64,000 nucleotides of DNA from an uncultured candidate division Zixibacteria bacterium (lineage in GTDB: Bacteria > Zixibacteria > MSB-5A5 > SM1-73), in the NCBI GenBank assembly GCA_903908285.1, contig CAIVRH010000014.1:57991-121990 (forward strand), read 5' to 3'. A model generated the notes under the pieces. It saw nothing but the letters and a program-made list of their open reading frames with translations. It was not told the DNA's origin and searched no databases. Every line of letters begins with the position of its first letter. Position 1 is the stretch's first letter. Both the position numbers and the translations under genes were made by a program. Below are positions 13,162 through 56,226 of the stretch, in pieces.

Positions 13162-13222
13162 GCAGATTTCAAAAATATCGTAACAAGATGTTTAACTAAC
13201 TATTGCTGAGAGGGGGATAATA

Positions 13223-14890: not shown

Positions 14891-14995
14891 ACTCACCCCC
14901 TTTGCTCCCCCTCTCTTCGAAAGAGAGGGGGATAGGGGTTGAGTTATGGTGCGCCACGAGAAAAACACATAACACAGCTTTAAGAGGATAATAAC

Positions 14996-16249: not shown

Positions 16250-16484
16250 ACTTTATTTCTGCTATTTTGGATTAAAGGAAGCTATTGAATTAGATTTACT
16301 GTAGCTTGGGGCAAGGAATCCTGAACCAACGTGCGACTGTAGGTGTTAGGTGTTAAGTGTTAGGTGTCAGGAAGCGGGTGTCAGGTTCATGGGCTGAATT
16401 CTATATTTTGCAGTTTGCAATCTTCAATCTGCAATCAAAGTTTTCATTTTCCCATTACCTTTCCGAACAAACCGGATAATCAAC

Positions 16485-16516
16485 AAAAAAGCCCCGCCAT
16501 AGACGGGGCTTTTTTG
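16485..16516. terminator. Bidirectional rho-independent terminator between convergent genes
   Basis: Sequence aaaaaagccccgccatagacggggcttttttg: 6-bp GC stem flanked by an A-run and a T-run. Confidence 0.75.
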
Positions 16517-16536
16517 AGCGTGCATTCCTTCCTTCG

Positions 16537-21453: not shown

Positions 21454-21631
21454 CCAGTTCTCCTTGGAGGTTAGGTTGGTGAATAGGAACAAAAAAAAGA
21501 GATTTCGAGAAGGGTCATAGGGAATTTCTTCCAAATAATGAACAGCCTTAATTAATACGTTAATACTCTTAAATATAATTTAACTAAATTCCTGAATTTG
21601 TCAAAGGTTTTCTAATACTAAAATCACTCGA

Positions 21632-23697: not shown

Positions 23698-24009
23698 AAG
23701 ATTCCCCTCGTCTTTTATCTATGTTTACCAATTATAGTATAACTTACCGACATATTTTGTCAACTACTTATTTTGATATTTTGGGGAGGGAAATGGGTAT
23801 GAGGATAGCTAAATTGTATTATCTTATTGTCAATCACTATGTCAGGAGCCTAAGGGCTAATAACCTATTCGGCTGTCGAGTCTAAAGCTACATTTGTCAG
23901 GCAAAATCCGCTTGCTTTTTAAGAAACTATAACTATATTGGGACTGCAAAATAAAAACTTTACAATTCGGAATACCTCTTTTTGCCTACTCCAAAAACCG
24001 GAGGTTCCT

Positions 24010-25551
24010 ATGCGTTCTCTAACGATTATAATTTGCACTATCCTCATTCCCTGCTCTTTTTATCATGCACGATCAACCGAAATCCATGCCGGATCAGAGG
24101 CGACTCCCCAGATACTCTGGTGGTACGATTTGAATGCTCCCTCTTTCGGGTCATCCGCGGTTGGTGATATCGATCATGATGGAAAATTGGAAATCGTTTT
24201 CGGAACCTATTTCAATGACGAATATATTTATGCCTTGAATGCCGACAGCGGCACTCTTCTGTGGAGATATAACACCGGGGGCTGCAATGATGCTTCTCCT
24301 GCAATAGCTGACGTCGACTTAGACGGTGCTTTAGAAGTGATCGTGCCCGCATCCTCCCCTTGCAGGATTTATTGTTTCAATGGAGCCAACGGAGCAGTCA
24401 AATGGTCAATTTCCACCAGCTCAAACTCCATCGACTCTCCGCCAGCGGTCGCAGATGTGGATAACGATGGTAAACCAGAAGTGATTTTTGGCACCTTCTA
24501 TGGCTACGTTTACTGCCTTAATGGTGAGGATGGAAGCCAATGCTGGCGCATCAACCTGGGAACCAGCAGTTACATTCAGTCCGAACCTAATATCCTCGAC
24601 GTTAATCAGGATGGGCAGTTGGATGTGGTAGTGGCTCAATGGGCCGGCAATAACCGGGTCTATGCCTTACGAGGAAACAATGGCTCCACTTTGTGGTATT
24701 CCGACTTGCCCAACGATGATATGTATCATGGCGGTTCCTTTGCGGATATTGACGAAGATGGCAAACCGGAGATCGCCATTGGCTGTTACGATAATAATCT
24801 TTATGTGTTAAATGGTGAAGATGGCAGTCTCAGGTGGCAATATACCGCACCTTATTACATCGGTGCACCTACCTCCATGGCTGACCTCAATAATGACGAT
24901 CACCTGGAGATAGTCATCGCTTCCTACAATATCATAAGAGCTTTATCTCATACCGGGAGCATGCTCTGGAGCTATACTGCGGGTGGTGGTTCATTTCGCG
25001 GATCTGCCATCGCGGATATCGATGGCAACGGCATTCTCGATGTCGCATTCGGTGCAGACGATGGCATTCTTAGAGTGTTAAGAGGTGATAGTGGTCAGGT
25101 AGTCTGGACTTATAATCTGCAAGCCCATTATGGAAGAACTTTTGAGATGGACCATGCGCCGGTGATTGCAGATTTTAATAATGATGGCAAACTGGATATT
25201 TTCATCATAGGCGGATATGGAACTTCCTCTCCGCCCAGTTCGAACCATGGGCGGGCTTATGCGCTTTCTGCCGGAAATGGCACAGGTCCCGGTTGGCCTA
25301 TGTTTCGACACGATCTCAGGCACAGCGGTAACTTTTATGGTTTCGTCTCTTTCATCCGGGGTGACGCTAACGGCGATAGTATTGTAACTGTCAGCGACGT
25401 GGTTTATCTGATTAACTATCTTTTCCATGGTGGCACACCGCCTGAACCGTTGGATGCTGGAGATGCCAATTCCGATCACACGGTTGACATTACGGATGTG
25501 GTATATTTGATCAACTACCTCTTCAAAGGTGGTCCACCTCCATGCAAATAA
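24010..25551 (+). CDS. Secreted FG-GAP/integrin-alpha-like beta-propeller protein with C-terminal type-I dockerin
   Basis: GGAGG Shine-Dalgarno and signal peptide MRSLTIIICTILIPCSF. Eight blades of D(I/V)DxDGKxE(I/V) (DIDHDGKLEIV, DVDNDGKPEVIF, DFNNDGKLDIFI and others). C-terminus RGDANGDSIVTVSDVVYLINYLFHGGTPP...GDANSDHTVDITDVVYLINYLFKGGPPPC. Confidence 0.75.
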   Translation: MRSLTIIICTILIPCSFYHARSTEIHAGSEATPQILWWYDLNAPSFGSSAVGDIDHDGKLEIVFGTYFNDEYIYALNADSGTLLWRYNTGGCNDASPAIADVDLDGALEVIVPASSPCRIYCFNGANGAVKWSISTSSNSIDSPPAVADVDNDGKPEVIFGTFYGYVYCLNGEDGSQCWRINLGTSSYIQSEPNILDVNQDGQLDVVVAQWAGNNRVYALRGNNGSTLWYSDLPNDDMYHGGSFADIDEDGKPEIAIGCYDNNLYVLNGEDGSLRWQYTAPYYIGAPTSMADLNNDDHLEIVIASYNIIRALSHTGSMLWSYTAGGGSFRGSAIADIDGNGILDVAFGADDGILRVLRGDSGQVVWTYNLQAHYGRTFEMDHAPVIADFNNDGKLDIFIIGGYGTSSPPSSNHGRAYALSAGNGTGPGWPMFRHDLRHSGNFYGFVSFIRGDANGDSIVTVSDVVYLINYLFHGGTPPEPLDAGDANSDHTVDITDVVYLINYLFKGGPPPCK

Positions 25552-31421: not shown

Positions 31422-31787
31422 TGAATAAGTAGTGGTTTATCGGTTTGCTGGAAAACCACCAAAGAACGGTTTATCATATCCAACCTGGTTCTATTAAGGA
31501 GAAGACGCCAAATAGGCTGAACCCAAAGATACACCACCCGCTCCAAGTGTACCGATTTGTTGCTTCCACCGGATTGAGAATAACCATCCAAGGTGGGAAT
31601 CACTTAAGGAAATCAATGATCCCAATAAATCAAAACCTGCCGGAATTCCCAAATAGCAAATCTTCCGTTTACCTGTGGGAATTTTTATTAAACGATTTTT
31701 TATAATCAGAACCAACGGGTTTTGATATGGTTGGCAAAGATCGTCCGAAATATACCGATGATACTCAAAAAGGGGTTATCTAACTTT

Positions 31788-34016
31788 ATGCACACAATCT
31801 CTCGCCTGATCAAAAAATCCATCTTTTTCTGGGTGTTATGCATTTCCCTGGTCAGTTTTTCATCCATCGGGCATGCGGGAACCGGTCCCTCCTGGGTTCC
31901 GCTGGTTCCTGTTGCAGATAAAACTCCCCGGGTGAATATGTTACGATCCGATCCCGCTCAGTTTACTTTTGAAATCCTGGTGCCGGGAATATGGTCGGAG
32001 GAAATCTCCACCCCGGGGGGAACTTACTCCTTGCTTTCCATACCTTCTGCCGGGGTAACTTCGGTGGTTAGCGAACCCAATTTGCCAGTATTGACCAGGA
32101 TGGTGCAAATTCCGTTTGGTGCAGTGGTGAATTTAAACGTGGAAAGTTATGAGGTCACAGAGAAAAGTCTAACCGATATGAAACTCACCCATCCGATAGC
32201 TCCGGTTCAACCTTCTATACCTAAGATAGCCGGAGCAGAGAAACAAGTCCGATTCACCATCAGCCAGAAATATTATCAGCAAAACTCATTTTTACCGGGA
32301 AATCTGGTCAAGCTGGGAAAAACCGGAATCATCCGGGGACATCGATACGTAACTGTCTTAATCTACCCGGTAAGTTATAATCCGCAGTTAGGGAAATTTA
32401 AAATATACTCCGATATAAGGGTGAAGTTGATCCTTTCGGGGTCGGATATGAGCACCACTCAAAACCAGCTTTTGCGTTATGCCTCCCCCCCGTTCGAGGA
32501 GCTTTGTTCGAAGTTATTCATAAATTATCAGTTCTATACACCCCTGGTCAAAACCAGCGCGGAATTGCCCATGAGCTATCTGATCATCTCCCCTCAGGAT
32601 TTTTATCCGAGCCTGGCTTTGCTGGTAGACTGGAAAACCCGAAAAGGATTCCATGTGACTGTGGCGCAGACTTCGGAAATAGGCTCAACCAAAGAAGAGA
32701 TAAAAAGTTATATTCAGAACGCTTACGACACCTGGACCATCCCCCCCACCTATGTTTTGCTGGTGGGGGATGTCGAATATATTCCCAACTGGATCGGGTC
32801 TTCCAGTTCCACTGCCACGGATCTTAATTACGTCAAGATGGATGAAGATGATTTTGCCGATATATTCCGCGGCAGATTGCCGGCGAAAAGTTTGTCGGAG
32901 GCGGAAGAGATGATAAACAAGATATTATATTACGAGAAGCCAACGTTACCCGATCTGGACTGGATGAAAAAGGCAAGCTTCATCGCCGCTTCCGATTTGA
33001 GCGGTTTTGCCGAAAGAACCCACGATTATGTGATGTTGAATTACTGCAATCCCACCGGGATGATCTGTGATACCATCTGGCAGAGATTGGGCGGATCGAC
33101 CGCCATGATCACCAGCAGCGTCGATGAGGGGAGAACTATCCTGTGTTATTCCGGGCATGGCAGTGAAACCGGCTGGACCAGCGTTCCTTTCAATCAGACT
33201 AATGTGGCGAATCTAACCAATGCAGATGAGTATCCTTTTGTCCTTTCCCATGCCTGTTTGACCGGGAGATTCAGCGTTTCCGAAAGCTATGGCGAAACCT
33301 GGGCCAAGGTGGCAAATAAAGCCGGCATCGCTTTCTGGGGAGCATCCAACTATACCTACTGGGACGAGGATGACATCCTGGAAAAACGGATGTTTCAGGC
33401 GGCATTTGCCGAAACCTGCTTTTCCATCGGCAGCATGACCGACAAAGCTTTGTGGTATCTTTACCAGTACTATGGAGGGGAAGGCTACAGCCAGTATTAT
33501 TTAGATATTTATAATATCATGGGAGACCCCTCCTTAGATCTGTGGACTAAGGTGGCTGATTCCCTCGTAGTAGCTTTCCCACACTTCATTTACCCCGGAA
33601 CAAATTCAGTCACCATCACCGTGCGGGATATCGATTCAGTTGCGGTTTATGGAGCTTTGGTATGCTTAGAAAAGGGGGATGAGATTTTAGAAACCGGTTA
33701 CACCGATCCTTCGGGTCAGTTAACTTTATATCCTTCTCCCCTCACCTCAGGGGCAATAAATGTGACCGTCACTGCCCATAATTTCCTGCCTGTGTTAGAT
33801 TCCATCCTGGTATCATCCGGGAAGGGTGATGTTACCGGCGACGGCGAGATCAATCTGGGGGATTTGGTCTTTCTCATGAACTATCTTTACAAGAATGGAC
33901 CTGCCCCCGCTCCTTTGACCAACGGTGATGTAAACTGTGACGATAAGATCAATTTGGGAGATTTGGTTTATCTGATCAATTATCTGTATAAGGGAGGCTC
34001 CTCTCCCTGTTCTTAA
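31788..34016 (+). CDS. Gingipain-like cysteine peptidase (family C25) with C-terminal type-I dockerin (paralog of 19207..21453)
   Basis: Signal peptide MHTISRLIKKSIFFWVLCISLVSFSSIGHA. Catalytic region ILCYSGHGSETGW...FVLSHACLTGRF. C-terminus GDVTGDGEINLGDLVFLMNYLYKNGPAP...GDVNCDDKINLGDLVYLINYLYKGGSSPC. Confidence 0.75.
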   Translation: MHTISRLIKKSIFFWVLCISLVSFSSIGHAGTGPSWVPLVPVADKTPRVNMLRSDPAQFTFEILVPGIWSEEISTPGGTYSLLSIPSAGVTSVVSEPNLPVLTRMVQIPFGAVVNLNVESYEVTEKSLTDMKLTHPIAPVQPSIPKIAGAEKQVRFTISQKYYQQNSFLPGNLVKLGKTGIIRGHRYVTVLIYPVSYNPQLGKFKIYSDIRVKLILSGSDMSTTQNQLLRYASPPFEELCSKLFINYQFYTPLVKTSAELPMSYLIISPQDFYPSLALLVDWKTRKGFHVTVAQTSEIGSTKEEIKSYIQNAYDTWTIPPTYVLLVGDVEYIPNWIGSSSSTATDLNYVKMDEDDFADIFRGRLPAKSLSEAEEMINKILYYEKPTLPDLDWMKKASFIAASDLSGFAERTHDYVMLNYCNPTGMICDTIWQRLGGSTAMITSSVDEGRTILCYSGHGSETGWTSVPFNQTNVANLTNADEYPFVLSHACLTGRFSVSESYGETWAKVANKAGIAFWGASNYTYWDEDDILEKRMFQAAFAETCFSIGSMTDKALWYLYQYYGGEGYSQYYLDIYNIMGDPSLDLWTKVADSLVVAFPHFIYPGTNSVTITVRDIDSVAVYGALVCLEKGDEILETGYTDPSGQLTLYPSPLTSGAINVTVTAHNFLPVLDSILVSSGKGDVTGDGEINLGDLVFLMNYLYKNGPAPAPLTNGDVNCDDKINLGDLVYLINYLYKGGSSPCS

Positions 34017-34075: not shown

Positions 34076-34283
34076 TATAAGCTATTATCCTGATGTTCAT
34101 ATATGGCAATGTATTCTGAATATTTCTCTTGACAAGTAAATTACTGACCTTATATTGTTAGTGGCAGAATCTAAATTCTTTATAGATAAAATGGAGCTAG
34201 GTTCACCTGTTAAGTGAGGGGATTGCTTGACAGAGGAAATTATTTATGAAAAAACCAAACGCCCCCAAAGGAGGCGAGGTAAA

Positions 34284-34622
34284 ATGAAATTGAGCATAGC
34301 GAAATCCGTAGGAAAGAAAATAATCCTTATAGTTGCTTGTGCTGTTTTACTTCTGATTTTTGCTTCTTCAGGGTACGGAGGGGGTAATGGAAAATATCAA
34401 TATATAAACCTCGAACACCCATGGAGTGATCCCTGTCTATCACCATCAGTTAATGGTACTGTTACAAACGCACTGATAATTCTGTTTGGCCATGATATGA
34501 TATTAGGATTTATGTTAAATGGAGACAAACCAACAACCCAAAATATCGATCAATCAAATACAAATCAAGGAATATGGATAAAATACCCTCAAAAGTCGAC
34601 CAAGAGATCGCATCAAAGATAG
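34284..34622 (+). CDS. Hypothetical small secreted/membrane protein (about 112 aa)
   Basis: AAAGGAGG Shine-Dalgarno before ATG. N-terminal TM/signal segment KIILIVACAVLLLIFASSGYG. Overlaps the next gene by about 49 nt, so uncertain. Confidence 0.3.
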   Translation: MKLSIAKSVGKKIILIVACAVLLLIFASSGYGGGNGKYQYINLEHPWSDPCLSPSVNGTVTNALIILFGHDMILGFMLNGDKPTTQNIDQSNTNQGIWIKYPQKSTKRSHQR

Positions 34623-36937
34623 AGTCGATTGAATCTTTAGTTAAACAGAAGAAGTTCAGTGAGGCGTTAGCTGAGATTCGGGACTTAGAATGTCAGAAGA
34701 TCGTAGACCGTTTCTCTCAAGAGGAAGGAAATATTCATTTCCTCTTGTCTTCGATTTATCACTATTTAGGTCGGTATCAGGAGGGTATAGAAGAATGCAG
34801 AAAAGCATTTGATTGCTTAAAAAACACATCGGAGAATGATAAGATCGCACAAATTCAGTTTACTTTAGGTTGCATTTATGTCGCATTAGGAGATTTTGAA
34901 AAAGCTGAATTAGAATTGAGGGATGCACTCGCCAGTCATAGACGTATTGGAAACAAACAAGGGATGATAAATATCTATAGCAAGCTTGCTAACATTTGTT
35001 TTATTAATTCTGATTTCGATATAGCGATCAAGCATCTTAAAGAAGGTATTAAATATTGTGATGAAAATGATGGGGAAACAACAAAAGCAATATTATCTGC
35101 AAATATGAGTAGAATTTTTATACTGAAAGGTATGTGGCGCGATGCACAAGAGACTCTCGTTTCATCCATCAAGATTTTTCAAGAAAAGGGTTGCAATTTG
35201 TATCTCGGTCAGGCTTACCTTTCTTTAGGTTATGTATGTCATTTGCAACGAGATTTCCAGAGAGCAAAAAGGTATTATGAGCAAGCTTTAAAAATCATCT
35301 ATGAAAATAATTACTTGCGGGAGATGGCAATCTACTATGAATACTATGGAGAGTTAGCTTTCACCCAAGGGAATTACTTCTTGGCTAAGGACCATTGTAG
35401 AAATGGGATCAAGATAGGGGAAGAGATTGCTCCAGATAGTGGAATCGTTAGTCAGACTTATCGGCTCTTGGCAGAAGTTCAAATTGCAGAAAAGCAGTAT
35501 GATGAAGCTTTGTCATCCTGTGAGAAGGCATTAAAGGTTGCGACATCTTTGGGAGAAAGAATCGAGATCGGAGCAATTCACCGGGCATTGGGGCAGATTT
35601 ATACTGCTAATAAAGATAAGAGTAAAACCAAAGAGAATTTTGAGAAGAGCATCTCCATCTTAGAAGAGATCGGAGCGAAGTTCGAATTAGGTAAGGCTTA
35701 TTTGGAGGCGGGAAAATCAGATGGATTTGAATATTTCGTTCGCTTGAAGTTTTTGGGCATTGCAGATGACTTGTTCAAAGAGCTTGGAAGCGCCTATTAT
35801 CAAGGCTTGGTGAATCTCTCATTAGCTCATCTTCTCTTTGAGCACAATGAACTTGAAAGGTCTCTCCTCTTTCTAAATTCAGCCGAGAAGATATTCCGGG
35901 AATTATCTGAAGAGAAGGAACTGAAACAGGTTTCTGATCTGAAGAAGAGACTTTCTTCCACTCCAATAGCTTTATCGTTCCCCCAAAAAGTCTCCTTTAT
36001 CCATGTAATCGCCCAAAGTCCTGAGATGCTCTCCGTAATTGACAAAGCCAAGCAGATCAAGGATTCAATTCACACCATTCTGTTGGAGGGGGAGACCGGA
36101 ACCGGCAAGGACCTTTTAGCCCGGACCATTCATGGTGAGAGCCGTTACAAAGACAAACCCTTCGTTCCGGTCAACTGTGCCGCTATACCTAAGGATTTGG
36201 TGGAGAGTGAGCTATTCGGGTATAAGAAGGGCGCATTCACCGGCGCTAATACGGATAAGAAGGGATTAGTGGAGGCGGCGGAGGGAGGGACCCTGTTTTT
36301 AAACGAGATCGCGGATTTGCCGCTTTTGACTCAAGCCAAGCTATTGGGGGCGATTGAGGACAAACAGATCACCAGATTAGGTGATACCAAGCCGCGGCAG
36401 GTCGACTTCAGGATTATTGCCGCCAGTAATAAGGACTTGCAGGAGCAGGTGAAATCCGGGAATTTCCGGGAGGATCTGTATTATCGTTTGAGTGTAATCA
36501 AGTTAGTCCTTCCGCCCCTCAGAGACAGAAAAGGGGACATTCCTGTTTTGCTCGATCATTTTCTTAGGAAACATTTTGGTGATGACGGGAACGAGCTTTC
36601 CAGCATTCATCCCCAAATATTGAAAATATTTGAAAGCTATCATTGGCCCGGAAATGTGCGGGAGCTGCAGAATGAGATCATAAAACTCATCACCTTGAAC
36701 GGGGAAGAATGCAGGGATGGGTCCGCGAATCTACCGGATAAGTTTTTATCTTCACCGTATATCTCCGAAACTGTTGGTTCTTTATATGATCAGGTGACAC
36801 AATTTGAGAAGAACTTGATTTTGAAAGCACTCGAAGAGAATAATTGGATAAAGATAAAGGCAGCCAGGACCCTCAAGATGCCTGCTATGACTCTGAATAA
36901 CAAAATCAAGAAATATCAAATAGAGATACCAATTTAA
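34574..36937 (+). CDS. Sigma54-dependent transcriptional activator (bEBP) with N-terminal TPR-repeat sensor region and C-terminal Fis-type HTH; no receiver domain
   Basis: About 470 aa of TPR-like repeats, then an AAA+ core: GETGTGKD (Walker A), [15 protein letters not shown] (GAFTGA sigma54-contact loop), [11 protein letters not shown] (Walker B, with Asn in place of the usual Asp), [25 protein letters not shown] near the end ([21 protein letters not shown]). Confidence 0.8.
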
Positions 36938-37113
36938 GTAGTCTGCTACCATTTCTGGTAGATTTTCATAATCCATTCATTCGCAACTGAATAGATCAGG
37001 ATTCGAGGTCTATTACATCATCTCCCCTACCAAATCTGGTATATCTGTTATTCGTTAGCCCGAGGAGATTGAGGATATAACAAGAAGCTGTTGAAGTTAC
37101 TTCCTTATATCAC

Positions 37114-37148
37114 AACCACTTGCCAAAAGGTAAGTGGTTTTTTGTTTT
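37114..37148 (+). terminator. Rho-independent terminator of the sigma54-activator gene
   Basis: aaccacttgccaaaaggtaagtggtt (8-bp stem) followed by tttttgtttt. Confidence 0.7.
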
Positions 37149-37493
37149 CTGGCATGCTTCTTGTAGATGCTCTCACCGTGGTGGACCAATTTAGTGAGCA
37201 ATCTTAATTGGTTTTACCCCTTCCTGTTGAAAGGAAAGCCCTGTCCCGCTTCTGTGCCGTCCCCGGAGGCGGGATGGGGTAGAAAGAAAGAAGATGACCA
37301 GGTTTAAAGTTTGACGGAAAATACATTTTTTACTCCTTTTCCCGCCAAAGGCGGGATCCCGACTCTTATCGGGACAAGTAAGTAGTTGGTTTGTGCCCAA
37401 AAAACGCTCCGCCCCTTCAACAATATTGACAATTGCCAAAAGGGGTGGAGCGGGAGAAAAGAGGAAGTAAAATGAAAATATGATAACAATCCC

Positions 37494-37580
37494 CATCTTA
37501 ATCGTTGACAAGGAGGTGATCTCATCTTATTGTTAAGAATAAGAAATTTCAAGAATTGCAAAAAAACAGGAGGAGGTAAG
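37494..37580 (+). promoter_or_regulatory. Conserved 87-nt promoter/5'UTR element, copy 1 (TTGACA-N17-TATTGT, AGGAGGAGG Shine-Dalgarno)
   Basis: About 95% identical to 40411..40503. Contains cgTTGACAaggaggtgatctcatctTATTGTtaag and aggaggaggtaagATG. Confidence 0.6.
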
Positions 37581-38599
37581 ATGAAAGCCCCAGGACTAAT
37601 CTTTGGGTTGTTTGTGTTCTTCTTTGTTCATGTGGTTTGGTTTCTGCCCAGCCTTTTGAGACTATTGAGATTGGTACTGGTGCTCATCCTCGATGGTCGC
37701 CTGATGGAACAAAAATAGCCTTCATTTCCAATGAGTGGATGTGGATGCGAAATGCGGATGGCACTGGAGAGACTACGAAATTGCTTAAAATCCCGGAGTA
37801 TGCCTACCATTTCTACTGGTTGGATTCTTCTGTATTTATGTTCCAAGACACCGGTGGTATTGCCACCATAACATTAGATGGTAAAAGAAGTGTGATAGCA
37901 AAAACCAAGAATGGAGAGACAGCCTCCTTCTATGTTCTTGGACCAATACTTTTGGCTGACGGAACAGTTGGTTATTATGAAGCCCCTCAAGGGAAAATGA
38001 TTTGGGAAACAGAAAAACGGATATTCAAAGTGATAAAACATGGCATACTTCCTCCAGACTCAAGCTTGAAACAGATGATAGCACTGGAGCACGTTCGAAA
38101 TCTGCCAGAATATGTGAATGAAGGTATTTGGCTCGAATCTCTTGACGGAACCATAAAGAAAAAGATAAGTAGCTACAGATACTATGATTCCCCTGTATTG
38201 TCGCCGGATGGAAGGAAAATCTTAGTGGTTGGTGGCACAAGGTGTGATGTTAGTGTCCTTGATTTGGGTGGTGAAGGGTTCTGCGTTGGCAAGAAATCAA
38301 TTATCCCTGTAAATCCGAAAGATACTACATTCATTCGGGGAGAAGTTGATGGTATACCCCTTTGGTCACCGGACAGTAAACGAATAGCTTATGCCTATGT
38401 AAGATATAGATCAGTTAGCGAGGATAACGTGGAAATTGTCGGCTCCGAACTATATATAGAAAATCCCGATGGCACAAACAGGGTACAGATAAACATCCCT
38501 GATGGAAACCCAACTGGACCGGTCTGGTCTCCGGATGGATCAAGGATCGCATGTACTGACCGCTTAACTACGAAGATATTTGTCATAGAACTAAAATAG
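37581..38599 (+). pseudogene. Secreted PD40 (TolB-like) beta-propeller protein, paralog A; apparent frameshift between signal peptide and mature domain
   Basis: The signal peptide MKAPGLIFGLFVFFFVHVV is in one frame from ATG 37581. The mature part (VSAQPFETIEIGTGAHPRWSPDGTKIAF...WSPDSKRIAYAY...WSPDGSRIACTD...KIFVIELK) is in the +2 frame from about 37640. Paralogs B and C have both parts in one frame. An indel lies in ggtttggttt. Could be an assembly error. Confidence 0.55.
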
Positions 38600-38772
38600 T
38601 AGTAGCCCTTTGCTACTTGCCTCATACATCGTCATTCTCCAATTTCAGGCTTTGGCTCGGCCTGAATAGGAAGTAAAATAAGGTAAAAATATCTATCGAC
38701 AAAAAGAGAATTAATGTTATTATAAATGTGCAAAATAGGAAAATAGCAGGTAATAATTCAGGAGGAGCTTAA

Positions 38773-39882
38773 ATGAGAACCCCAATACTGATCTTCGGGT
38801 TAATTGTGTTTTTCTTTGCTTCATGCAGTTTAGTTTATGCCCAGCCATTTGAGGAGATTGAAATCGCCACAGGAGCGGATCCGCATTGGTCACCGGATGG
38901 AACCAAGCTTGCTTATGTTTATCATGCTGCGCTTTATGTAGCAAACGCAAATGGGGAAGGTGAGCCACAAAAAATCGAAGAGCTTCCGGAAAATGCTGAA
39001 GGTTTTGCCTGGTTGGATTCAAATGAATTTCTGGTGTGGGGGAGGGATTACGGAAGGGAAGAAGGGGGTATGTTAAACAAAAGCAACTGGATCCAAGCGA
39101 TAAATAAAAACGGAGAGAAACGATCCATTGCCAGAGATAAGGAGATTGCTGAAGATAGTAAGCCGCATGAAATTCCCCTCATCTCCGGGCTTACGATTTT
39201 AAATGATGGGACAATAGGTTATTGGGAGACACCGATGGGGGTGGAGGACGAATGGGAAAATACCAACAAAGTATTCCACATAATAAAACAGGGAAAGCTC
39301 CCACCGGATTCTGCGGTGAAGCAACTTCAAGCAGTTTGGCATTATGGAGGGATATACAGCCGCGGAGGTAAACAAGTATACCCGGAACAAGGTATTTGGC
39401 TGGAGAGCGTAGATGGAACCATAAACAAAAAAGTCAGCTCGTGCGATCACTGCTCATTTCCAGTTTTATCTCCTGATGGAACCAAAATTCTTGTAGTGTG
39501 TGGTGCAAAATGCCCTACATGTATACTAGACCTAAATGGAAACGAATCATGTGTCGGGAAGGAACCAATTGATCCTTCTGATCCTATGGATACGGTCTTT
39601 ATCAGAGGTAATGTGAATGGATTGCCCGTTTGGTCTCCAGATGGGGAAAAAATAGCCTATGGGTATCACTGGTATAAACCTGTAATGGAGGGTTATGATG
39701 ATGTTGACATTATTGAGATTACTTCTGATATATACATAGAGAACTGGGATGGCAGTGGTAGAATTCAGGTAACCGATACCCCAGATATAGCCGAAGGTGG
39801 ACCGGTATGGTCGCCAGATGGATCAAAGATTGCCTGCACAGACAGTAAAACGGCTAAGATATTTGTTATAAAACTAAGATAA
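38773..39882 (+). CDS. Secreted PD40 (TolB-like) beta-propeller protein, paralog B
   Basis: AGGAGGAG Shine-Dalgarno. Signal peptide MRTPILIFGLIVFFFASCSLVYA. Motifs QPFEEIEIATGADPHWSPDGTKLAY, VLSPDGTKILVV, VWSPDGEKIAYGY, VWSPDGSKIACTD. C-terminal KIFVIKLR. Confidence 0.7.
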   Translation: MRTPILIFGLIVFFFASCSLVYAQPFEEIEIATGADPHWSPDGTKLAYVYHAALYVANANGEGEPQKIEELPENAEGFAWLDSNEFLVWGRDYGREEGGMLNKSNWIQAINKNGEKRSIARDKEIAEDSKPHEIPLISGLTILNDGTIGYWETPMGVEDEWENTNKVFHIIKQGKLPPDSAVKQLQAVWHYGGIYSRGGKQVYPEQGIWLESVDGTINKKVSSCDHCSFPVLSPDGTKILVVCGAKCPTCILDLNGNESCVGKEPIDPSDPMDTVFIRGNVNGLPVWSPDGEKIAYGYHWYKPVMEGYDDVDIIEITSDIYIENWDGSGRIQVTDTPDIAEGGPVWSPDGSKIACTDSKTAKIFVIKLR

Positions 39883-39914
39883 AGAAGCTAATATATTTAA
39901 TAGGGAGGCTAAAA

Positions 39915-40457
39915 ATGAAAAAGAACATAATATTTTCTGTTGTGCTTCTAATAGTTGCATTTTCACCGTCCATAATTTTCGCCGATTGGGTTGTTTGCAT
40001 TGATGCGGGACATGGGGGACCGGGCGCAGATAAATATACTAATGGTGGAGATTTGTCGGGGACTGCTGGAAAATGTATCAAAATCGCAGAGCAGTGGGTT
40101 AACTTCAATGTAGCTTGTGAGTTAAGATATGCTATACTTCAAACAACGATGTACAATGTTGTTATGACCAGGCAATCTGAGGCTGATCCCTATTATGGGT
40201 ATGGTATAAATGAGTGGGACCGGAACTTATGGAAACGTGCCCGAATAGCAAATTACGCTAAAGCAGGTCTAGGGGATATTTATGCTCGTCATGCTGATCA
40301 ATTCATTTCTATCCATCATAATGGCTGGGACGATTCGCTTACACAAGGTATAGAAGTATTTTGGTGTTCCAAACAAACAACAGACAGTGGTTATTCGCGT
40401 TGCTATGTACCATCTCCTTTAATCGTTGACAAGGAGGTGATCTCATCTTATTGTTAA
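39915..40457 (+). pseudogene. N-acetylmuramoyl-L-alanine amidase (Amidase_3) gene, 3'-truncated where the 87-nt conserved element begins
   Basis: Signal peptide. Catalytic-domain motifs CIDAGHGGPGADKY, IAEQW, FISIHHNGWDD, QGIEVFW. The last 15 codons (PSPLIVDKEVISSYC-stop) are encoded by the repeated promoter element. The C-terminal part of the domain, containing the catalytic Glu, is missing. Confidence 0.55.
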
Positions 40458-40503
40458 GAATAATAAATTTCAAGAATTTCAAACAAAACCAGGAGGAGGT
40501 AAG
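40411..40503 (+). promoter_or_regulatory. Conserved promoter/5'UTR element, copy 2
   Basis: catctcctttaatcgTTGACAaggaggtgatctcatctTATTGTtaagaataataaatttcaagaatttcaaacaaaaccaggaggaggtaagATG. Confidence 0.6.
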
Positions 40504-41511
40504 ATGCGAACCCAAAAACTAATTTTAGGGTTGTTTATGCTCTTATTTGTTTCTCACAGTTTCATTTTTGCCCAGTCGTTTGAAACCATTCAGATTGGGA
40601 ATGGCACTCAAAAGTTCAGCAAGCCAGTTTGGTCACCTAATGGAGAAAATTTAGCATTTTGGGGACATGGGGGAATCTATGTTTGCAAGTGGGATGGATC
40701 GGAACAACCCAAGAAGATATTCGATACCTTTGGTGAGGATTTAATGTGGGCATCGGATTCTGAATTGGTTTATTGGCAAAGAAAATATTGGGAAGAAAAG
40801 CAGGAAGGGAAAAGACCAAAGCGAATGGAAAGGGATTTTATAAAACTGGTAAATCTAAAAGGAGAGGAACAAACTATAACGGAAGGTAACAACTTGCAAG
40901 CCCCCTGTAAACTGCCCGATGGAGCAGTAATCTTCGCAGGTGAACAAGGATATGAGATAATCCGGGAAGGTAATTTGGGCAAAGATGCTCTCAAAGAACA
41001 GTTTGGCGTTACTTCCCATTACCCACCTATTTATGATTCAAGGAAAAAAGGGCCAGAGTACGAAGACACGGACATATGGATTAGCTCATTGGATGGAAAC
41101 TTTAAAAAGAGGGTAACTTATGGCAAAGAATATTATACTCCCAGAATTTCGCCTGATATGACGAAAATATTAGCCAGTGATTTTATCGTCTTAGACCTAA
41201 ATGGTAATGAGTTAGCTAATCTGAATCCCGGGACCAAAATGATTTCTAAGTATGTTAGTTCCATCCCCTGTTGTTCTAAATGGTCACCAGATAGTAAAAG
41301 CATCGTTTACACGATGGAAGTGGACAATGACGAAACACAGATGATTGAAGGATCAGAACTGTGCATCATAAATGTTGACGGTCCCGGTAGAACAGAAATT
41401 ACTTCTACTCCAGCTGAAATTGAGTTGAACCCGGAGTGGTCACCAGATAGTGAAAAAATAGCCTGTAATTCGCTGAATACAGGAAAAATATTCATTATCA
41501 AGTTAAAATGA
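40504..41511 (+). CDS. Secreted PD40 (TolB-like) beta-propeller protein, paralog C
   Basis: Signal peptide MRTQKLILGLFMLLFVSHSFIFA. Motifs QSFETIQIGNG...VWSPNGENLAF, KWSPDSKSIVYTM, EWSPDSEKIACNS. C-terminal KIFIIKLK. Confidence 0.7.
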   Translation: MRTQKLILGLFMLLFVSHSFIFAQSFETIQIGNGTQKFSKPVWSPNGENLAFWGHGGIYVCKWDGSEQPKKIFDTFGEDLMWASDSELVYWQRKYWEEKQEGKRPKRMERDFIKLVNLKGEEQTITEGNNLQAPCKLPDGAVIFAGEQGYEIIREGNLGKDALKEQFGVTSHYPPIYDSRKKGPEYEDTDIWISSLDGNFKKRVTYGKEYYTPRISPDMTKILASDFIVLDLNGNELANLNPGTKMISKYVSSIPCCSKWSPDSKSIVYTMEVDNDETQMIEGSELCIINVDGPGRTEITSTPAEIELNPEWSPDSEKIACNSLNTGKIFIIKLK

Positions 41512-41553
41512 AAGCATTTTACTACTATGCATTCATTCTTCAAGGGGGATCAG

Positions 41554-44500
41554 ATGAAAGGAAAATCACTTCTTAAATGTGTTTTATTGGTTTTGATTGG
41601 AATTACGTTTTTTTATTCTACATGTGTAGCTATTATCTACGTTTGTATAGACCCCGGACATGGCGACAATAAGCATGGATCTGAAGGTCAACATTTCCAC
41701 AGTTTAGAGAAAAATGCCAATCTTAAAGTCGGATTGGCATTAAGAGATTCTTTGAACACACTTGGATATCCAGATTCAACAGTAAGAGTGATTATGACTC
41801 GAACTGGTGACACAAACCCTAGTTTCCAACAACGAGCTGCCTGTGCTATGGGTGATAATCCTGATAGTGCAAGAGCAAGTCAGTTCATTATTATTCATCA
41901 TAACGGCGATACTTCTGATGTTACTAATTACATCATGTCTTATGTTTGCACTTATGTGGATCAAATTCCTGGTGACACTACTGAGAGGGACATAAGCATA
42001 AATCTGGTAGACAGGGTTCAGGCAAAGATGGTTGATATTTTGGGATATAAAGAGGCTTCTCAGAGACTAAAAGATAGCTGTTGGTACGTCTTAGAGTATA
42101 CTAGCATGATTTCTGCTTACCCAGAAGTATCTTTTATGACATGTAGGAAGATAGATTCTCTTTTTCATTACGATACTACCTATGCAAGAAAAGAAGCAGG
42201 GAGTATATACCGTGGATGGCGTGCATATATGGGAGATGATCCCATTATAGTCGTAAGGAATCACTTTGACGGAGGTTATGTTTTGGTGGATAGTATCTCC
42301 CGTGAGTCCCCCTTTCACGGAGCTTGGATGAATGGTGAATCACATCGCATCGGAGCTTACAATCAAACTGGCTATGGTGCAGATGGCTACTATCGATGGT
42401 ACGAGTTTTGCCGATGGCAAGACCAAATATCCCAGCAAGAGCGGAATATCTATGTTGGTAATGACGATGAGGTATATACAGCTTATTTCTCTTGGGACAA
42501 TTCAGGCTCTCATCCCTATTACATAATAGTGCAAAGTCCAAATGGAGATGAGAGTTACGGCATGGGACAAATCATGCCCATTTGTTGGTATGCCGACCCG
42601 GGTATTATCGACCCTGATGGAAATTGTAATGGAACTTTTCTGGATATTTATCTTTCAAGAAACGGAGGTCAAAACTATGATGAAATTATTCAATCGGATT
42701 GGCCAACTTCCGGAAACGCATACGGCTGCTATGAATACTGGCATGTCACAGGTCCCCCGTCTGGTCAATGTAAAATCAAGATATTAGCACATGATGATAT
42801 TTGTAACAATGATTATGATGTCTCAAATTATAATTTTGCTATATTGTGTGCTCCCCAGCCTAATTCTCCTTCTAATCTGATTGCAACGAATTATGGATGT
42901 GATGCACGCATTTCCTTATACTGGCAAGATAATTCTACAACTGAGGATGGTTTCAATATTTATCGGGATGGGCAACTTACCGGTTCCGTGGGAGCAAATG
43001 TTACCACGTTCACCCAAACGGGACTTCATCCGGGTCAAAGTTATTCTTATTATGTCAAAGCACAAAGACAAGGGTGTGAATCCGCACCCACCAACACGGT
43101 GAGTTCGGTTCCGGGACTCCTTACCCCAACCGCTCCTACGAATCTTCAGGTGGTGAACGTTGGGCCGTGCGAATTCCGAGCCACATGGCAAGACAATTCA
43201 TCCAACGAAGATGGTTTTGTCATAAAAAATGGAACTTTTTTACATGCAAGGGTTGATCCCAACATTACCAGCTATCAGGGATACTATTTCCCGGAAGCAG
43301 AATGGAAGCAAACTGGTGATTTCTACGTGTATGCTTATACCGACGATCCTGGCAGTGGTTGTAAATCTTACTCCAATCATGTGAACCTTGACCCACCTGG
43401 TGGTTTAATGCTCTGGCCTACTGACATTCAATTCCACGGCTCTGATTGCTATTGGTATATCACCTGGCATAAAAGAGACAACTACGACCGGTGCCAGGTC
43501 AAAATCAAGTACACCGATTATACTACCACCACCGGCTGCGATGAACAATACAACTTTTGGTATACCCAGCTTTCATCCCCGGATAGTTTCCGGTTTCTGC
43601 CCAGTGTGGGCGATCATTGTTATCAAGCGCAGGTTCGTGGGGGCAAGTGGGTGGATTGTGGGTCCTACGGAGATATGAAATGGTCGGAATATCCCCCACC
43701 TACTTACTGGGTGCGGATTATCTGCAACAATCCACCCTGGGGTTGCCCTTACCTTTTTGTACCCGATGGAGAAAAATACGTTGGCGAGAATACCATTTTG
43801 GCGCCGGCAGAAATGTCAACGGAGAGGGACTTAGACATCAACGATTACTATCTCATACGTCAATCGTTAACTCCAATAGATAGTCTGTATAAGCTTCGTA
43901 TAGCTGAATTCGAAAGTGAACACTCCTTCTTTGACCAAGTAAAGCTTTTGGCGGTAGATCATGATCTTAGCACGAAAGCGGCGGTGTCTGCAAAAGGCGA
44001 AGTATTCGTTTATAATCCCACCGACTATTTCGAGCCTATCTCCTGCAGTGATAGAAACGGGGTAAATAAAGACTCCCTCCTCCAATTAGAACCCGAAGAT
44101 AAAGTTTTTCTTTCTGGATCGGGTTCTCTGACTTTAAATTTCGGATCGATTCCCTCGGATACCGGAAGTCTGATTATGCTCGCTCCCTGCTGCGGGAGCC
44201 CCAAGTTCCCCAAGGCTATTACCAAGATTGCATCCGGGGCAGAACCAACCCAGCAAATCGGCTTGTTGGTTGAGACGGAGGGGAATGGGGTTTGGCAGAA
44301 AGTCGACTCGCTTCCGCCAAGAATGGAACAGCAGGAAGTTCTGGTAAATCTCTCCGATCACACCTCCCCGGAGCGGGCGCTAAAAATAAAACTGAGCTGG
44401 GACGAAAGAGGTTATACCTTTTCCAAAGTTCGCTGCTTGCGGGCGCAAAGGTTTAATCAACCGGTATCTCTACCGTTGATTTCCGCTTACCATTCCTCGG

Positions 44501-44958
44501 CCGGTGAGGTGAAGCAGAAACTAACCTCGAATGACAATGACTATGCGGAAGTTTTGCCCGGACAAAATATCGATTTATCTTTTTCCTATCAGCCAGTCGA
44601 GCCGAATAAAGTCAGGGATTTGGTATTCGAGTGTAACGGGTATTATTTCACGGAAAATACGGCTCCGGACAGCAGCAGTGATACCAGCGAGATCTCGCAG
44701 AATTATCCCAACCCTTTTAATCCGCAGACTCAGATCAAATTTACCGTAATCAAAACTGCACCGGTAAATCTGGCAATTTATAATATTCTCGGACAAAAAG
44801 TCGCCACTTTAATGGACGAAACATTGCCGGTGGGAAAACATGTGGTAATTTGGAACGGCGAAGACGATTCCGGTCAAAAAGTGGCAAGCGGTATTTATTT
44901 CTATCGTCTTCAAGTAGGGGAGTTTAATGAAGTAAGGAAGATGATACTGATGAAATAA
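41554..44958 (+). CDS. Giant secreted protein: N-terminal Amidase_3-like domain, central region, two FN3-like modules, C-terminal T9SS sorting domain
   Basis: AAGGGGGAT Shine-Dalgarno and signal peptide. Amidase motifs CIDPGHGDNKHG, LEKNANLKV, FIIIHHNGDT. FN3-like NLIATNYGCDARISLYWQDNSTTEDGFNIYRDG and NLQVVNVGPCEFRATWQDNSSNEDGFVIKNG. CTD ISQNYPNPFNPQTQIKFTV...IYNILGQKVATLMDE...GIYFYRLQVGEFNEVRKMILMK. Confidence 0.75.
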   Translation: MKGKSLLKCVLLVLIGITFFYSTCVAIIYVCIDPGHGDNKHGSEGQHFHSLEKNANLKVGLALRDSLNTLGYPDSTVRVIMTRTGDTNPSFQQRAACAMGDNPDSARASQFIIIHHNGDTSDVTNYIMSYVCTYVDQIPGDTTERDISINLVDRVQAKMVDILGYKEASQRLKDSCWYVLEYTSMISAYPEVSFMTCRKIDSLFHYDTTYARKEAGSIYRGWRAYMGDDPIIVVRNHFDGGYVLVDSISRESPFHGAWMNGESHRIGAYNQTGYGADGYYRWYEFCRWQDQISQQERNIYVGNDDEVYTAYFSWDNSGSHPYYIIVQSPNGDESYGMGQIMPICWYADPGIIDPDGNCNGTFLDIYLSRNGGQNYDEIIQSDWPTSGNAYGCYEYWHVTGPPSGQCKIKILAHDDICNNDYDVSNYNFAILCAPQPNSPSNLIATNYGCDARISLYWQDNSTTEDGFNIYRDGQLTGSVGANVTTFTQTGLHPGQSYSYYVKAQRQGCESAPTNTVSSVPGLLTPTAPTNLQVVNVGPCEFRATWQDNSSNEDGFVIKNGTFLHARVDPNITSYQGYYFPEAEWKQTGDFYVYAYTDDPGSGCKSYSNHVNLDPPGGLMLWPTDIQFHGSDCYWYITWHKRDNYDRCQVKIKYTDYTTTTGCDEQYNFWYTQLSSPDSFRFLPSVGDHCYQAQVRGGKWVDCGSYGDMKWSEYPPPTYWVRIICNNPPWGCPYLFVPDGEKYVGENTILAPAEMSTERDLDINDYYLIRQSLTPIDSLYKLRIAEFESEHSFFDQVKLLAVDHDLSTKAAVSAKGEVFVYNPTDYFEPISCSDRNGVNKDSLLQLEPEDKVFLSGSGSLTLNFGSIPSDTGSLIMLAPCCGSPKFPKAITKIASGAEPTQQIGLLVETEGNGVWQKVDSLPPRMEQQEVLVNLSDHTSPERALKIKLSWDERGYTFSKVRCLRAQRFNQPVSLPLISAYHSSAGEVKQKLTSNDNDYAEVLPGQNIDLSFSYQPVEPNKVRDLVFECNGYYFTENTAPDSSSDTSEISQNYPNPFNPQTQIKFTVIKTAPVNLAIYNILGQKVATLMDETLPVGKHVVIWNGEDDSGQKVASGIYFYRLQVGEFNEVRKMILMK

Positions 44959-55074: not shown

Positions 55075-56226
55075 ATGAGACGGATAATCTTTCTGCTTGT
55101 AATTGTCTTTTTGCTGTGGTGGATCGATCCGGCTTGGGCAGCTGCCTATCAAGCCGGAGATGCCAACGGTGACAGCGTAGTGGACATTGGGGACGTGGTG
55201 TATGAGATCAACTATCTTTTCAGGAGCGGACCCTCGCCGGTGTTCTACGAATGCGGCGATCCTACCGGGGACTGCGTAATCAACGTGGGTGACGTGGTAT
55301 ACCTGATCAACTATCTCTTCAAAGCGGGCACAACCCCGCAGATAGTGGAATGCGGCTGGAGTGAGCCGGTCAACCTGGGATCACCTATCAATAGTACTAG
55401 AGGTGATGGTTCAATATCTTTTTCATTTAACTTTAAGAAACTTGTATTAGTCTCAGACAGAACTGGAACACATGGTGATGAAGACATCTGGTATATTGTG
55501 AGGGATAGTGTATCACAAGCATGGTCACAACCGATAAATTGCGGCAACAACATAAACACGGACATTCGAGATCCGTATCCCTGTATCTCCGGAGACGGGA
55601 ATAAGATTTATTTTCTCTCCTGGAACAGGCCCGGGGGGTATGGAGGGTGGGATATTTGGGTTTCAAGCTGGGACAGCTCTGCCGGAATTTGGGGTGTGCC
55701 CGAGAACCTGGGAGCGAACATTAATTCCGGAGGGGTCTGGACTCCGTTCGTAACCTTGGATGATACCAAGCTGTATTTCTCCTCCACCCGCTATCCGGGG
55801 GGGATATTCGTCTCGGAGAGAAGTGGAGGTGACTGGGGTGTTCCGGTCTGGCTGGGTCCTAACGTGAATATGTATTTTAACGAAGAAGATCCCAGCGTAA
55901 CAGTGGACAACCAGACGCTTTATTTTGTCCGGTGGGACTTGGAAGACTGCGGAGAAGGATTGCCGCACATCTGGGTTTCCTACTGGACCGGGACGGAATG
56001 GGGACCTTCTTATATGCTGCCATCCGGCATAAACTATCCATGTGCCGGCGCATCGGACCCCTGGATAACGCCGGACGGATCCAAGCTTTATTTCAGCGCA
56101 GGAATAAGACCGGGCGATATGGGTTTGGGTGATATTTGGATGTCTGAGCGGATTCCCGTAGAGAAAGGTAAGAGATTCATTAACCGCGATCAGAAAGTAA
56201 TAATAAGCAGTGGAACCGACCGATAG
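55075..56226 (+). CDS. Secreted protein with N-terminal type-I dockerin followed by TolB-like PD40 beta-propeller
   Basis: Signal peptide MRRIIFLLVIVFLLWWIDPAWA. GDANGDSVVDIGDVVYEINYLFRSGPSP...GDPTGDCVINVGDVVYLINYLFKAGTTP. PD40-like repeats (ISGDGNKIYF, TLDDTKLYF, ITPDGSKLYF). Confidence 0.7.
   Translation: MRRIIFLLVIVFLLWWIDPAWAAAYQAGDANGDSVVDIGDVVYEINYLFRSGPSPVFYECGDPTGDCVINVGDVVYLINYLFKAGTTPQIVECGWSEPVNLGSPINSTRGDGSISFSFNFKKLVLVSDRTGTHGDEDIWYIVRDSVSQAWSQPINCGNNINTDIRDPYPCISGDGNKIYFLSWNRPGGYGGWDIWVSSWDSSAGIWGVPENLGANINSGGVWTPFVTLDDTKLYFSSTRYPGGIFVSERSGGDWGVPVWLGPNVNMYFNEEDPSVTVDNQTLYFVRWDLEDCGEGLPHIWVSYWTGTEWGPSYMLPSGINYPCAGASDPWITPDGSKLYFSAGIRPGDMGLGDIWMSERIPVEKGKRFINRDQKVIISSGTDR

Follow-up and report, generated by a model that had tools for sequence, protein, structure and literature searches.

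The region from 34284 to 44958 of the DNA analyzed here, a 64,000-nucleotide stretch of a contig from an uncultured Zixibacteria bacterium (the window), encodes a sigma54 activator, three PD40 beta-propellers (P1 to P3), a truncated cell wall amidase of the Amidase_3 family (stub A) and a large, intact one (amidase B). The propeller and amidase genes make up a two-gene module that recurs in related metagenomic loci, in which the propeller probably binds the amidase in the periplasm. In our preferred reading, on which we are evenly divided, the locus would have two layers, a regulatory cassette built around the activator and an array of modules whose propellers would act as periplasmic inhibitors, or immunity partners, of the amidases. 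All genes of the array lie on the + strand, and the first-pass annotation of this DNA had identified and placed them correctly. The window matches a section of a 250-kb metagenome scaffold (ENA ERZ18628254, BUCK21-1 scaffold_3) with full identity. Its genes were called identically on a second contig (204 kb) that belongs to a different ENA assembly, and none of the sources checked gave names for their proteins. Where a taxonomic label is attached to close propeller or activator homologs, it reads Zixibacteria.

Conservation of the propeller-amidase module

The conserved unit consists of a gene for a secreted, non-catalytic, seven-bladed PD40 propeller of about 340 residues, followed by a gene for an exported Amidase_3 protein that carries a dockerin or the C-terminal domain (CTD) typical of type IX secretion system (T9SS) cargo. 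We compared the window with related metagenomic loci, designated by L-numbers (L002 to L110); L009 to L088, which came from a generic scan for the WSPDG pattern, encode unrelated PD40 proteins and were excluded. The module was present in at least 12 other loci, often in tandem, with intact propeller genes and truncated 5' stubs of amidase genes. In L005, L008, L089, L090, L091, L100, L103/L110, L106, L107, L108 and L109, the gene immediately 5' of the Amidase_3 gene or its stub encodes a propeller, and L002 holds an orphaned remnant; in every related locus with enough sequence, the PD40 gene comes directly before the Amidase_3 gene or stub. The linkage was recovered from either end. When the search started from propeller homologs, all long contigs (L005, L008, L089, L090 and L091) showed one or more propellers and, immediately after them, a gene for an Amidase_3 protein tagged with a dockerin or CTD, and when it started from amidase homologs, a propeller was directly upstream in three of three contexts (L106, L107 and L108). 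A DNA-pattern scan with the promoter core described below added L100, with three propellers and then an amidase, L103 and L105. The propeller and amidase genes noted in the first pass are tightly linked in relatives and not scattered. Propeller and amidase genes are separated by 30 to 45 nt (32 to 42 nt in the window), and in L090 they overlap by 4 nt at the start and stop codons.

The window joins two types of module. Type A comprises P1 (37581 to 38599), P2 (38773 to 39882) and an amidase cut down to stub A (39915 to 40457), and type B comprises P3 (40504 to 41511) and the intact amidase B (41554 to 44958). P1 and P2 are 47 to 52% identical, whereas P3 shares only 30 to 36% identity with P1 and 32 to 35% with P2. 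P3 is 51 to 56% identical to the propellers of L090 and L108 but only 30 to 32% to P1/P2 in this comparison, and amidase B is 46 to 48% identical to the amidases paired with them. By these comparisons the P3-amidase B pair is orthologous to the L090 and L108 pairs, with P3 as the cognate partner of amidase B. Stub A is 39 to 41% identical to the L008 and L089 amidases and only 27.5% identical to amidase B. Because stub A is of the L008/L089 kind while P3 and amidase B are of the L090/L108 kind, the window juxtaposes two module lineages. The measured paralog identities, 30 to 52%, are more widely spread than the 35 to 40% given in the first pass, and in place of a simple expansion of three paralogs, the array is best described as a junction of two module types plus decay.

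In L110, the stretch from 11968 to 16590 encodes, behind a sigma54 promoter, an outer membrane beta-barrel protein, a 306-aa lipoprotein-like PD40 protein and an S8 peptidase (978 aa) that ends in a T9SS CTD, and it is followed by the propeller-amidase pair. The PD40 protein and the S8 peptidase make a further pairing of this kind with an exported hydrolase. The possibility that the PD40-S8 pair represents the same propeller family with another hydrolase was ruled out, as identity was 26% over a fragment.

The propellers

The three PD40 proteins (320 to 369 aa) consist of a propeller only, their Pfam matches being limited to PD40/DPPIV_N repeats, and Pfam searches of the window propellers found no peptidase or other catalytic domain. 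The best 120 propeller homologs are about 200 to 390 aa long (about 320 to 390 aa where query coverage is at least 90%), and their Pfam matches are likewise of propeller type only. An S9- or S41-type peptidase domain, which would have pointed to ordinary periplasmic proteases, was found neither in the window propellers nor in these homologs. P2 (369 aa) has an intact signal peptide, and its AlphaFold2 (AF2) model is a seven-bladed propeller (pLDDT 87); P3 has 335 aa. Signal peptides are present in this family and export tags are absent.

P1 is frameshifted. Its Shine-Dalgarno sequence and ATG (37581) belong to a different frame from the propeller itself (37637 to 38599, 320 codons), so that the signal peptide is not read in phase with the propeller; one T is missing after 37628, and inserting one there restored a 339-aa protein with a signal peptide. 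The same split was called on the second contig. Of the three secreted paralogs first described, three PD40 open reading frames (ORFs) are indeed there, but only two are intact genes, the frameshift of P1 falling within its signal peptide.

Like TolB, the propellers are periplasmic-type PD40 beta-propellers with a signal peptide, and there are weak PD40/TolB profile matches and Foldseek matches to TolB, as a housekeeping Tol-Pal-type propeller acting with a cell division amidase would give. That explanation is effectively refuted. Unlike TolB, the propellers fail the TolB model (TIGR02800, 40.4 and 45.4 bits with a cut-off of 343), Pfam found no TolB N-terminal domain in those of the window, and neither the window annotation nor the related loci include tolQ-tolR-tolA-pal neighbors. 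The propellers are multicopy and some are decaying, the model is closest to seven-bladed propellers, and the amidases carry a T9SS CTD or a dockerin. The first-pass view that this is not housekeeping Tol-Pal is therefore upheld, whereas its analogy with TolB and AmiC at division is unsupported, the amidase being tagged for export.

The amidases

Amidase B (1134 aa, + strand) is composed, in order, of a signal peptide, Amidase_3, a small beta domain, an Ig-like domain, fn3, about 430 aa that could not be assigned and the T9SS CTD. The Amidase_3 match is nearly full length (PF01520, 71.8 bits, profile positions 1 to 170 of 174), and H36, E52, H115 and E191, the Zn ligands and catalytic Glu, are invariant across the amidase alignment. 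The CTD scores 38.1 with TIGR04183 (cut-off 23) and 26.2 with PF18962 (cut-off 27), the latter being marginal, and the N terminus is hydrophobic. These profiles agree with the first description of a complete Amidase_3 fused to fn3 and a T9SS CTD, and amidase B is predicted to be a peptidoglycan amidase and T9SS type A cargo (signal peptide plus C-terminal Por_Secre_tail domain). Pfam searches at E ≤ 1 with the amidase extension and with the 524-aa middle region gave nothing. The amidases of the related loci share a common N-terminal module of about 430 aa (Amidase_3, small beta and Ig-like domains) and differ in their anchors.

The Ig-like domain (42526 to 42849; residues about 325 to 430 of amidase B) is about 100 aa long, has the motif W.VTGP.S..C+IKI.A.D and has no Pfam match. 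It was found in 474 representatives at E ≤ 1e-3, with up to 23 copies per protein in surface proteins of 1000 to 3800 aa.

The window is crowded with other exported proteins tagged with a dockerin or CTD, at 4803-6674(+), 8847-11537(-), 19207-21534(-), 23938-25551(+) and 31722-34016(+). Dockerins are carried by a GH116 protein, two C25 (gingipain-like) peptidases and an FG-GAP propeller, and a CTD by a beta-helix protein; the product of 4803-6674 is a second CTD protein of the window and an indirect sign that the genome may encode T9SS machinery. Elsewhere, at 55075-56226, Poly_export/SLBB and Wzz/GNVR polysaccharide export genes adjoin the gene for another PD40 protein (383 aa), which is not related to the array family.

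Array scars and selection

Intact propellers followed by truncated amidase 5' ends were observed in seven loci: the window, L002, L005, L008 (twice), L089, L106 and L109. In the window, stub A (180 aa, + strand) matches only profile positions 1 to 95 of 174 and lacks the region of the catalytic Glu, in line with the truncated amidase first reported. Its reading frame ends inside a second copy of the P1 promoter/5' untranslated region (5'UTR), a 69-nt repeat (40419 to 40487) that is 96% identical to the first (37498 to 37566). As its last 12 codons are encoded by this repeat, the truncation is a recombination junction.

L005 arose by recent duplication of a 2471-bp unit. In L005 and L008, about 300 nt over the promoter and the propeller 5' end are mostly 81 to 98% identical between repeats, compared with about 62 to 85% for internal and 3' coding sequence, and in 40-codon windows the identity of paralog pairs in L005 and L089 likewise falls from a high 5' to a low 3' level. 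These homogenized flanks promote unequal recombination, by which the arrays both grow and decay. P1 of L008 is 70 to 73% identical to the L089 propellers, and the stub that follows it resembles the 5' end of an L089-type amidase (65% over 26 aa to L89_102). Frameshifted members are common and show ongoing decay: in addition to P1 of the window, they include an L008 propeller (8739 to 9798, 122 + 232 aa) and an L090 amidase (9020 to 11761, 366 + 529 aa), the latter split inside a conserved domain.

In L002, the propeller is a 70% identical ortholog of P2; P3 has been lost by deletion together with most of amidase B, of which only a 47-aa stub and the CTD survive. The dN/dS ratio between P2 and this ortholog is 0.13, with the adjacent amidase truncated in both loci. 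P2 is under purifying selection beside a truncated amidase.

Role of the propeller

With a Sec signal and a T9SS CTD or dockerin, the amidase would cross the periplasm in folded form, and would thus fold beside the producer's own peptidoglycan before export. The propeller carries only a Sec signal and should therefore remain in the periplasm. We infer that it binds its cognate amidase there and most likely inhibits it, providing immunity or self-protection, and protection against related amidases would fall to the extra and orphan propellers. We favor inhibition because pairing is tight, type specific and sometimes overlapping and because intact propellers stand beside destroyed amidases. The resemblance of orphan propellers to the cognate ones of other genomes (P1 of L008 and the L089 propellers) and the diversification of the arrays argue in the same direction.

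Several points weigh against this reading. Pairwise distances among propellers and among adjacent amidases, from global alignments of full pairs, are correlated (r = 0.72, Mantel p = 0.004, eight pairs), in favor of a partnership, but this correlation is confounded by organism phylogeny. (An earlier test on 160-aa local BLAST identities, stubs included, gave r = 0.09, which was noise, and was replaced by the global alignments.) Tandem duplication ending inside an amidase gene automatically yields a propeller plus a stub, so that young stubs such as that of L005 need no selection. The AF2 model of amidase residues 1 to 432 (17 sequences, pLDDT 58.8) is too poor for a fold search or a reading of the active site. 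The genome encodes many hydrolases with a dockerin or CTD, and the amidase may simply scavenge peptidoglycan. An exported amidase is not known to have a route into the periplasm of another diderm cell. Finally, several Amidase_3 enzymes require protein activators, not inhibitors.

The last point also counts for the main rival, built by analogy with those systems, in which the propeller would be an activator, a cofactor or a folding/export chaperone and the amidase would be inactive until bound. It draws on the same adjacency and co-divergence, and the best NCBIfam match of the amidase is CwlD-like (32.5 bits, below cut-off). Nevertheless, we consider it unlikely. Intact propellers are retained under purifying selection beside truncated amidases, the propeller of L002 was kept when its amidase was almost wholly deleted, and diversified multicopy arrays are not expected of an activator. 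A propeller without an export tag would also be parted from the exported enzyme.

It may also be that the propellers are independent of the amidase protein, for instance as periplasmic binders of released peptides or muropeptides in a module that scavenges peptidoglycan or necromass. Hydrolases with a dockerin or CTD (C25 peptidases, GH116, S8) abound in the window and related loci, and in L005 genes for an OPT transporter and for an M29 peptidase are close by; however, from locus to locus, uptake and peptidase genes are not consistently linked to the module. That P3 pairs with amidase B in a type-specific way (as in L090 and L108) and that start and stop codons overlap in L090 point instead to a partnership at the protein level, and we find this explanation rather improbable. 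Given the wealth of such hydrolases in the window, the amidase itself could nonetheless serve to degrade necromass rather than for antagonism.

Returning to inhibition, a more far-reaching version is that secreted PD40 propellers are a new family of periplasmic immunity proteins against Amidase_3 cell wall toxins that Zixibacteria would export via T9SS or dockerins, the arrays being orphan-immunity islands shaped by an arms race and switched in one lineage by a TPR-sigma54 system. We put it forward tentatively, as a doubtful extension. The locus may be an inter-bacterial or a peptidoglycan-handling system, as first proposed.

The activator cassette

A sigma70-like promoter (34129 to 34158, + strand; TTGACA-16-TATATT, 11 of 12 matches) precedes a small ORF (34284 to 34622, + strand) that encodes 112 aa with an N-terminal hydrophobic segment and overlaps the start of the activator gene (34574 to 36937, + strand). 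The latter encodes a bacterial enhancer-binding protein (bEBP) of 787 aa. Its sensor region of about 440 aa contains TPR_12/TPR_MalT repeats (residues about 50 to 360); it is followed by an AAA+ domain (Sigma54_activat, PF00158, 2e-67, residues 479 to 644, with GAFTGA present in the translation, and AAA_lid_14) and a C-terminal Fis-type helix-turn-helix (HTH) domain (PF02954, HTH_8, residues 741 to 781). As first described, TPR repeats replace the receiver, and a domain search of the 787-aa protein found no receiver domain. The TPR-bEBP family is common among metagenome proteins labeled Zixibacteria. The small ORF is kept 5' of an orthologous bEBP gene in L002, L109 and L110, with 33 to 45% identity among the four loci including the window, and its product may be a signaling partner of the TPR sensor. 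This product carries an HPW(S/E) motif.

In L106, a homologous TPR-bEBP (40% identity in the TPR region, 48% in AAA+) is encoded directly 5' of a propeller-stub-propeller-amidase array, and L109 (bEBP 50% identical) has the same arrangement as the window. In L110 (bEBP 62%) and L002 (bEBP 67%), the cassette is set apart from the module by 5 to 6 kb that hold other envelope genes. L109 and L110 came from two reciprocal bEBP look-ups preselected to match propeller contigs; the sample is thus biased, and frequencies of bEBP-array linkage are not derivable from it. About half of the arrays elsewhere are without the small ORF and TPR-bEBP cassette. In particular, in five arrays the 6 to 10 kb available upstream contain no bEBP gene and no -24/-12 motif. 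Sigma54 control is a lineage-specific add-on outside the core module.

Between the bEBP gene and the array lie two 16-bp palindromes that resemble upstream activating sequences (UAS), CTACCATTTCTGGTAG (36946 to 36961, a perfect 6-4-6 palindrome) and CTACCAAATCTGGTAT (37027 to 37042). Lineage-specific 6-4-6 palindromes of this length occur in two or three copies per locus upstream of the sigma54-like site, with equivalents in L002, L109 and L110, and the two in the window are probable activator sites. Next come a hairpin with a T-run resembling an intrinsic terminator (37114 to 37139, + strand), at the end of the bEBP transcript, and a candidate sigma54 -24/-12 element, TGGCATGCTTCTTGT (37150 to 37164, + strand; GG-N10-GT). 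At the aligned site past the bEBP terminator, L109 (TGGCACATCTTTTGC) and L110 (TGGCATACCCCTTGC) have the canonical TGGCAC/T-N5-TTGC (TGGCAY-N5-TTGC), and L002 has TGGCACGCTTCTTGT plus a second copy, TGGGACACTTCTTGT. The order of palindromes (two or three), terminator and -24/-12 element is kept in L109 and L110.

An 18-bp GC-rich leader hairpin, GCCCTGTCCCGC...GGCGGGATGGGG (37238 to 37280, + strand), is also found in L002 (3716-3780 and 9622-9680), L109 (11686-11730) and L110 (11676-11720), about 70 to 110 nt 3' of the sigma54-like site. Seven substitutions affect one side only, and every one of them is a C-to-U change in the 5' arm that retains a G-U pair, which suggests that the hairpin works as RNA on the + strand. 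On its 3' side follow a second conserved hairpin, GCTCCGCCCC...GGGGTGGAGC (37406 to 37451, + strand), a purine-rich tract and the promoter core TAATCNTTGACAAGGAGGTGAT. No Rfam family matched anywhere in the window at the gathering threshold.

In the mechanism that we propose, the small membrane-type ORF and the activator would be transcribed from their sigma70-type promoter, the activator would bind the two palindromes, and the promoter at 37150, beyond the terminator, would read through a structured leader of about 400 nt into the array. A first sigma54 scan of the window, allowing two mismatches, gave 40 matches where 40.6 were expected by chance. For this reason, and because of the five arrays without a bEBP, sigma54 control was first dismissed; the comparison with L106, L109, L110 and L002 reversed that view, and a sigma54 link to the array is plausible. 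A cassette of bEBP, UAS and sigma54 promoter facing the array is likely ancestral in this lineage.

Two observations stand against sigma54 control here: the -12 element of the window is TTGT instead of TTGC, and L106 has the bEBP but no recognizable -24/-12 element. As the -12 is a T, the window site is a candidate only. It is thus conceivable that the bEBP is a mere neighbor, that the window's TGGCAT-N5-TTGT is non-functional and that sigma70-type promoters alone drive the array. Besides the GT at -12, the proximal core TAATCNTTGACAAGGAGGTGAT with its -10 at 17 nt is invariant across taxa, five arrays do without bEBP or motif, and in L002 and L110 other genes intervene. On the other hand, the canonical motif occurs only once in the whole of L109 and of L110 (15 to 20 kb, with 0.06 and 0.04 matches expected), at the aligned site, and a search of all 64 kb of the window with the relaxed motif gave a single match. 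Moreover, the order of palindrome, terminator and promoter is conserved, the leader hairpin retains its G-U pairing on the + strand, and the bEBP-array linkage recurs at bEBP identities of 40 to 67%. We therefore doubt that the bEBP is a bystander, and we infer sigma54 dependence in this genome. Of the module controlled by sigma54 that was first suggested, the cassette and the canonical site of L109 and L110 bear out one part, whereas the TTGT of the window and the five arrays without a bEBP do not.

Promoters of the propeller genes

The propellers keep sigma70-type promoters of their own, and these would act alongside the sigma54 promoter. Sigma70-like hexamers with 10 of 12 matches occur at 37505, 38696 and 40426, one before each propeller, as first noted, even though the 21 such sites found in the region do not exceed the 26 expected. 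The P1 and P3 promoters are conserved across taxa despite this chance-level total. Copy 1 of the promoter/5'UTR cassette (37498 to 37566, + strand) has its -35 (TTGACA) at 37505 and its -10 (TATTGT) ending at 37533, and its core TAATCNTTGACAAGGAGGTGAT is invariant across taxa. Copy 2 (40419 to 40487, + strand), which precedes P3, is the recombination junction described above. The site before P2 (38696 to 38723, + strand) reads TCGACA-16-TATTAT. The strong Shine-Dalgarno sequences reported in the first pass are GGAGGAG, 5 to 7 nt 5' of each propeller ATG.

The promoter/5'UTR behaves as a portable expression cassette, 77 to 96% identical in nucleotide sequence between taxa whose propellers are only about 36% identical. 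It consists of TAATCNTTGACAAGGAGGTGAT, the -10 at 17 nt, an A-rich tract, AAGGAGGAGGTAAGATG and a signal peptide start 'MRTxNL', and its spacer AAGGAGGTGAT is complementary to the 3' end of 16S rRNA. It was found in the window (37498-37566 and 40419-40487), L002 (9912-10000), L091 (7915-8000) and L094 (9869-9960), where it precedes an unrelated gene for a 142-aa lipoprotein-like protein.

A larger repeat is seen in L002, where an element of about 340 nt (terminator, sigma54-like site and hairpin) occurs twice, at 3494-3826 and 9400-9740, with 91% identity. The copies flank a 5.6-kb block of radical SAM, lipid-A acyltransferase-like, TPR and M50-like genes. The radical SAM-M50 block was looked for in the window and is absent, and the window has one copy of the element, which fits recombinational deletion or insertion between copies. 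In addition, CCCGCC-N4-GGCGGG hairpins recur between genes (window 37344-37360, L103 about 485-505, L091 7606-7632), and in L103 and L104 one lies immediately 5' of the propeller Shine-Dalgarno sequence. They may be REP-like elements.

Relation to known systems

In gene arrangement, the locus resembles the effector-immunity pairs and orphan immunity arrays of type VI secretion systems (T6SS) and of CDI/Rhs systems. In both, the paired genes are adjacent, co-oriented and sometimes overlapping, the signal peptide of the partner targets the compartment of the enzyme's substrate, peptidoglycan, and tandem arrays combine diversified, retained partner genes with truncated enzyme genes and recombination at conserved flanks. 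The likeness is one of arrangement, toxicity and neutralization being predictions. The enzyme here is an Amidase_3 with a T9SS CTD or dockerin, unlike T6SS, CDI or Rhs cargo, and the putative immunity gene is upstream, which leaves 5' stubs where those systems leave 3' toxin tips. A beta-propeller immunity protein, PefE, has been predicted for an unrelated effector (10.1101/2023.03.28.534661).

Dedicated partners are well known for Amidase_3 enzymes: AmiA/B/C work with EnvC/NlpD, CwlD with GerS and LytH with ActH. These partners are LytM-type, LolA-like or membrane TPR proteins, and they activate; we know of no PD40 propeller among them. Their systems share with the present one the genetic or functional coupling of an Amidase_3 to a non-catalytic partner, but their amidases stay in the envelope, whereas the ones described here are exported, and they do not form arrays.

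The activator resembles bEBPs of the NifA/NorR/PspF type in its AAA+ domain with GAFTGA, its HTH_8 domain, the upstream palindromes and a candidate -24/-12 promoter beside its gene; it differs in its TPR sensor of about 440 aa and in the conserved small overlapping ORF upstream. To our knowledge, nothing has been characterized of sigma54 regulation in Zixibacteria, and no study of the TPR-bEBP family was found in the searchable literature. The component families of the locus are all known already; the propeller-Amidase_3 pairing, its arrays and the TPR-bEBP cassette are undescribed there, searches on propeller immunity and amidases, Zixibacteria amidases, T9SS peptidoglycan hydrolases and immunity, and TPR bEBPs having returned nothing directly relevant.

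If the propellers neutralize the amidases, they would constitute a new structural class of proteinaceous peptidoglycan hydrolase inhibitor, and the locus would address the general problem of moving a folded cell wall hydrolase through the producer's own periplasm. They would then be evidence that an uncultured sediment phylum engages in conflict of the effector-immunity kind or, at the least, protects itself while exporting T9SS cargo, and if the immunity island reading is true, the system would be a contact-independent or surface-displayed antibacterial one. The TPR-bEBP cassette, with its palindromes, promoter and structured leader, offers a tractable handle on sigma54 regulation in Zixibacteria. 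Even if the locus serves scavenging only, its module stands as a well-defined partnership of two proteins that lends itself to testing.

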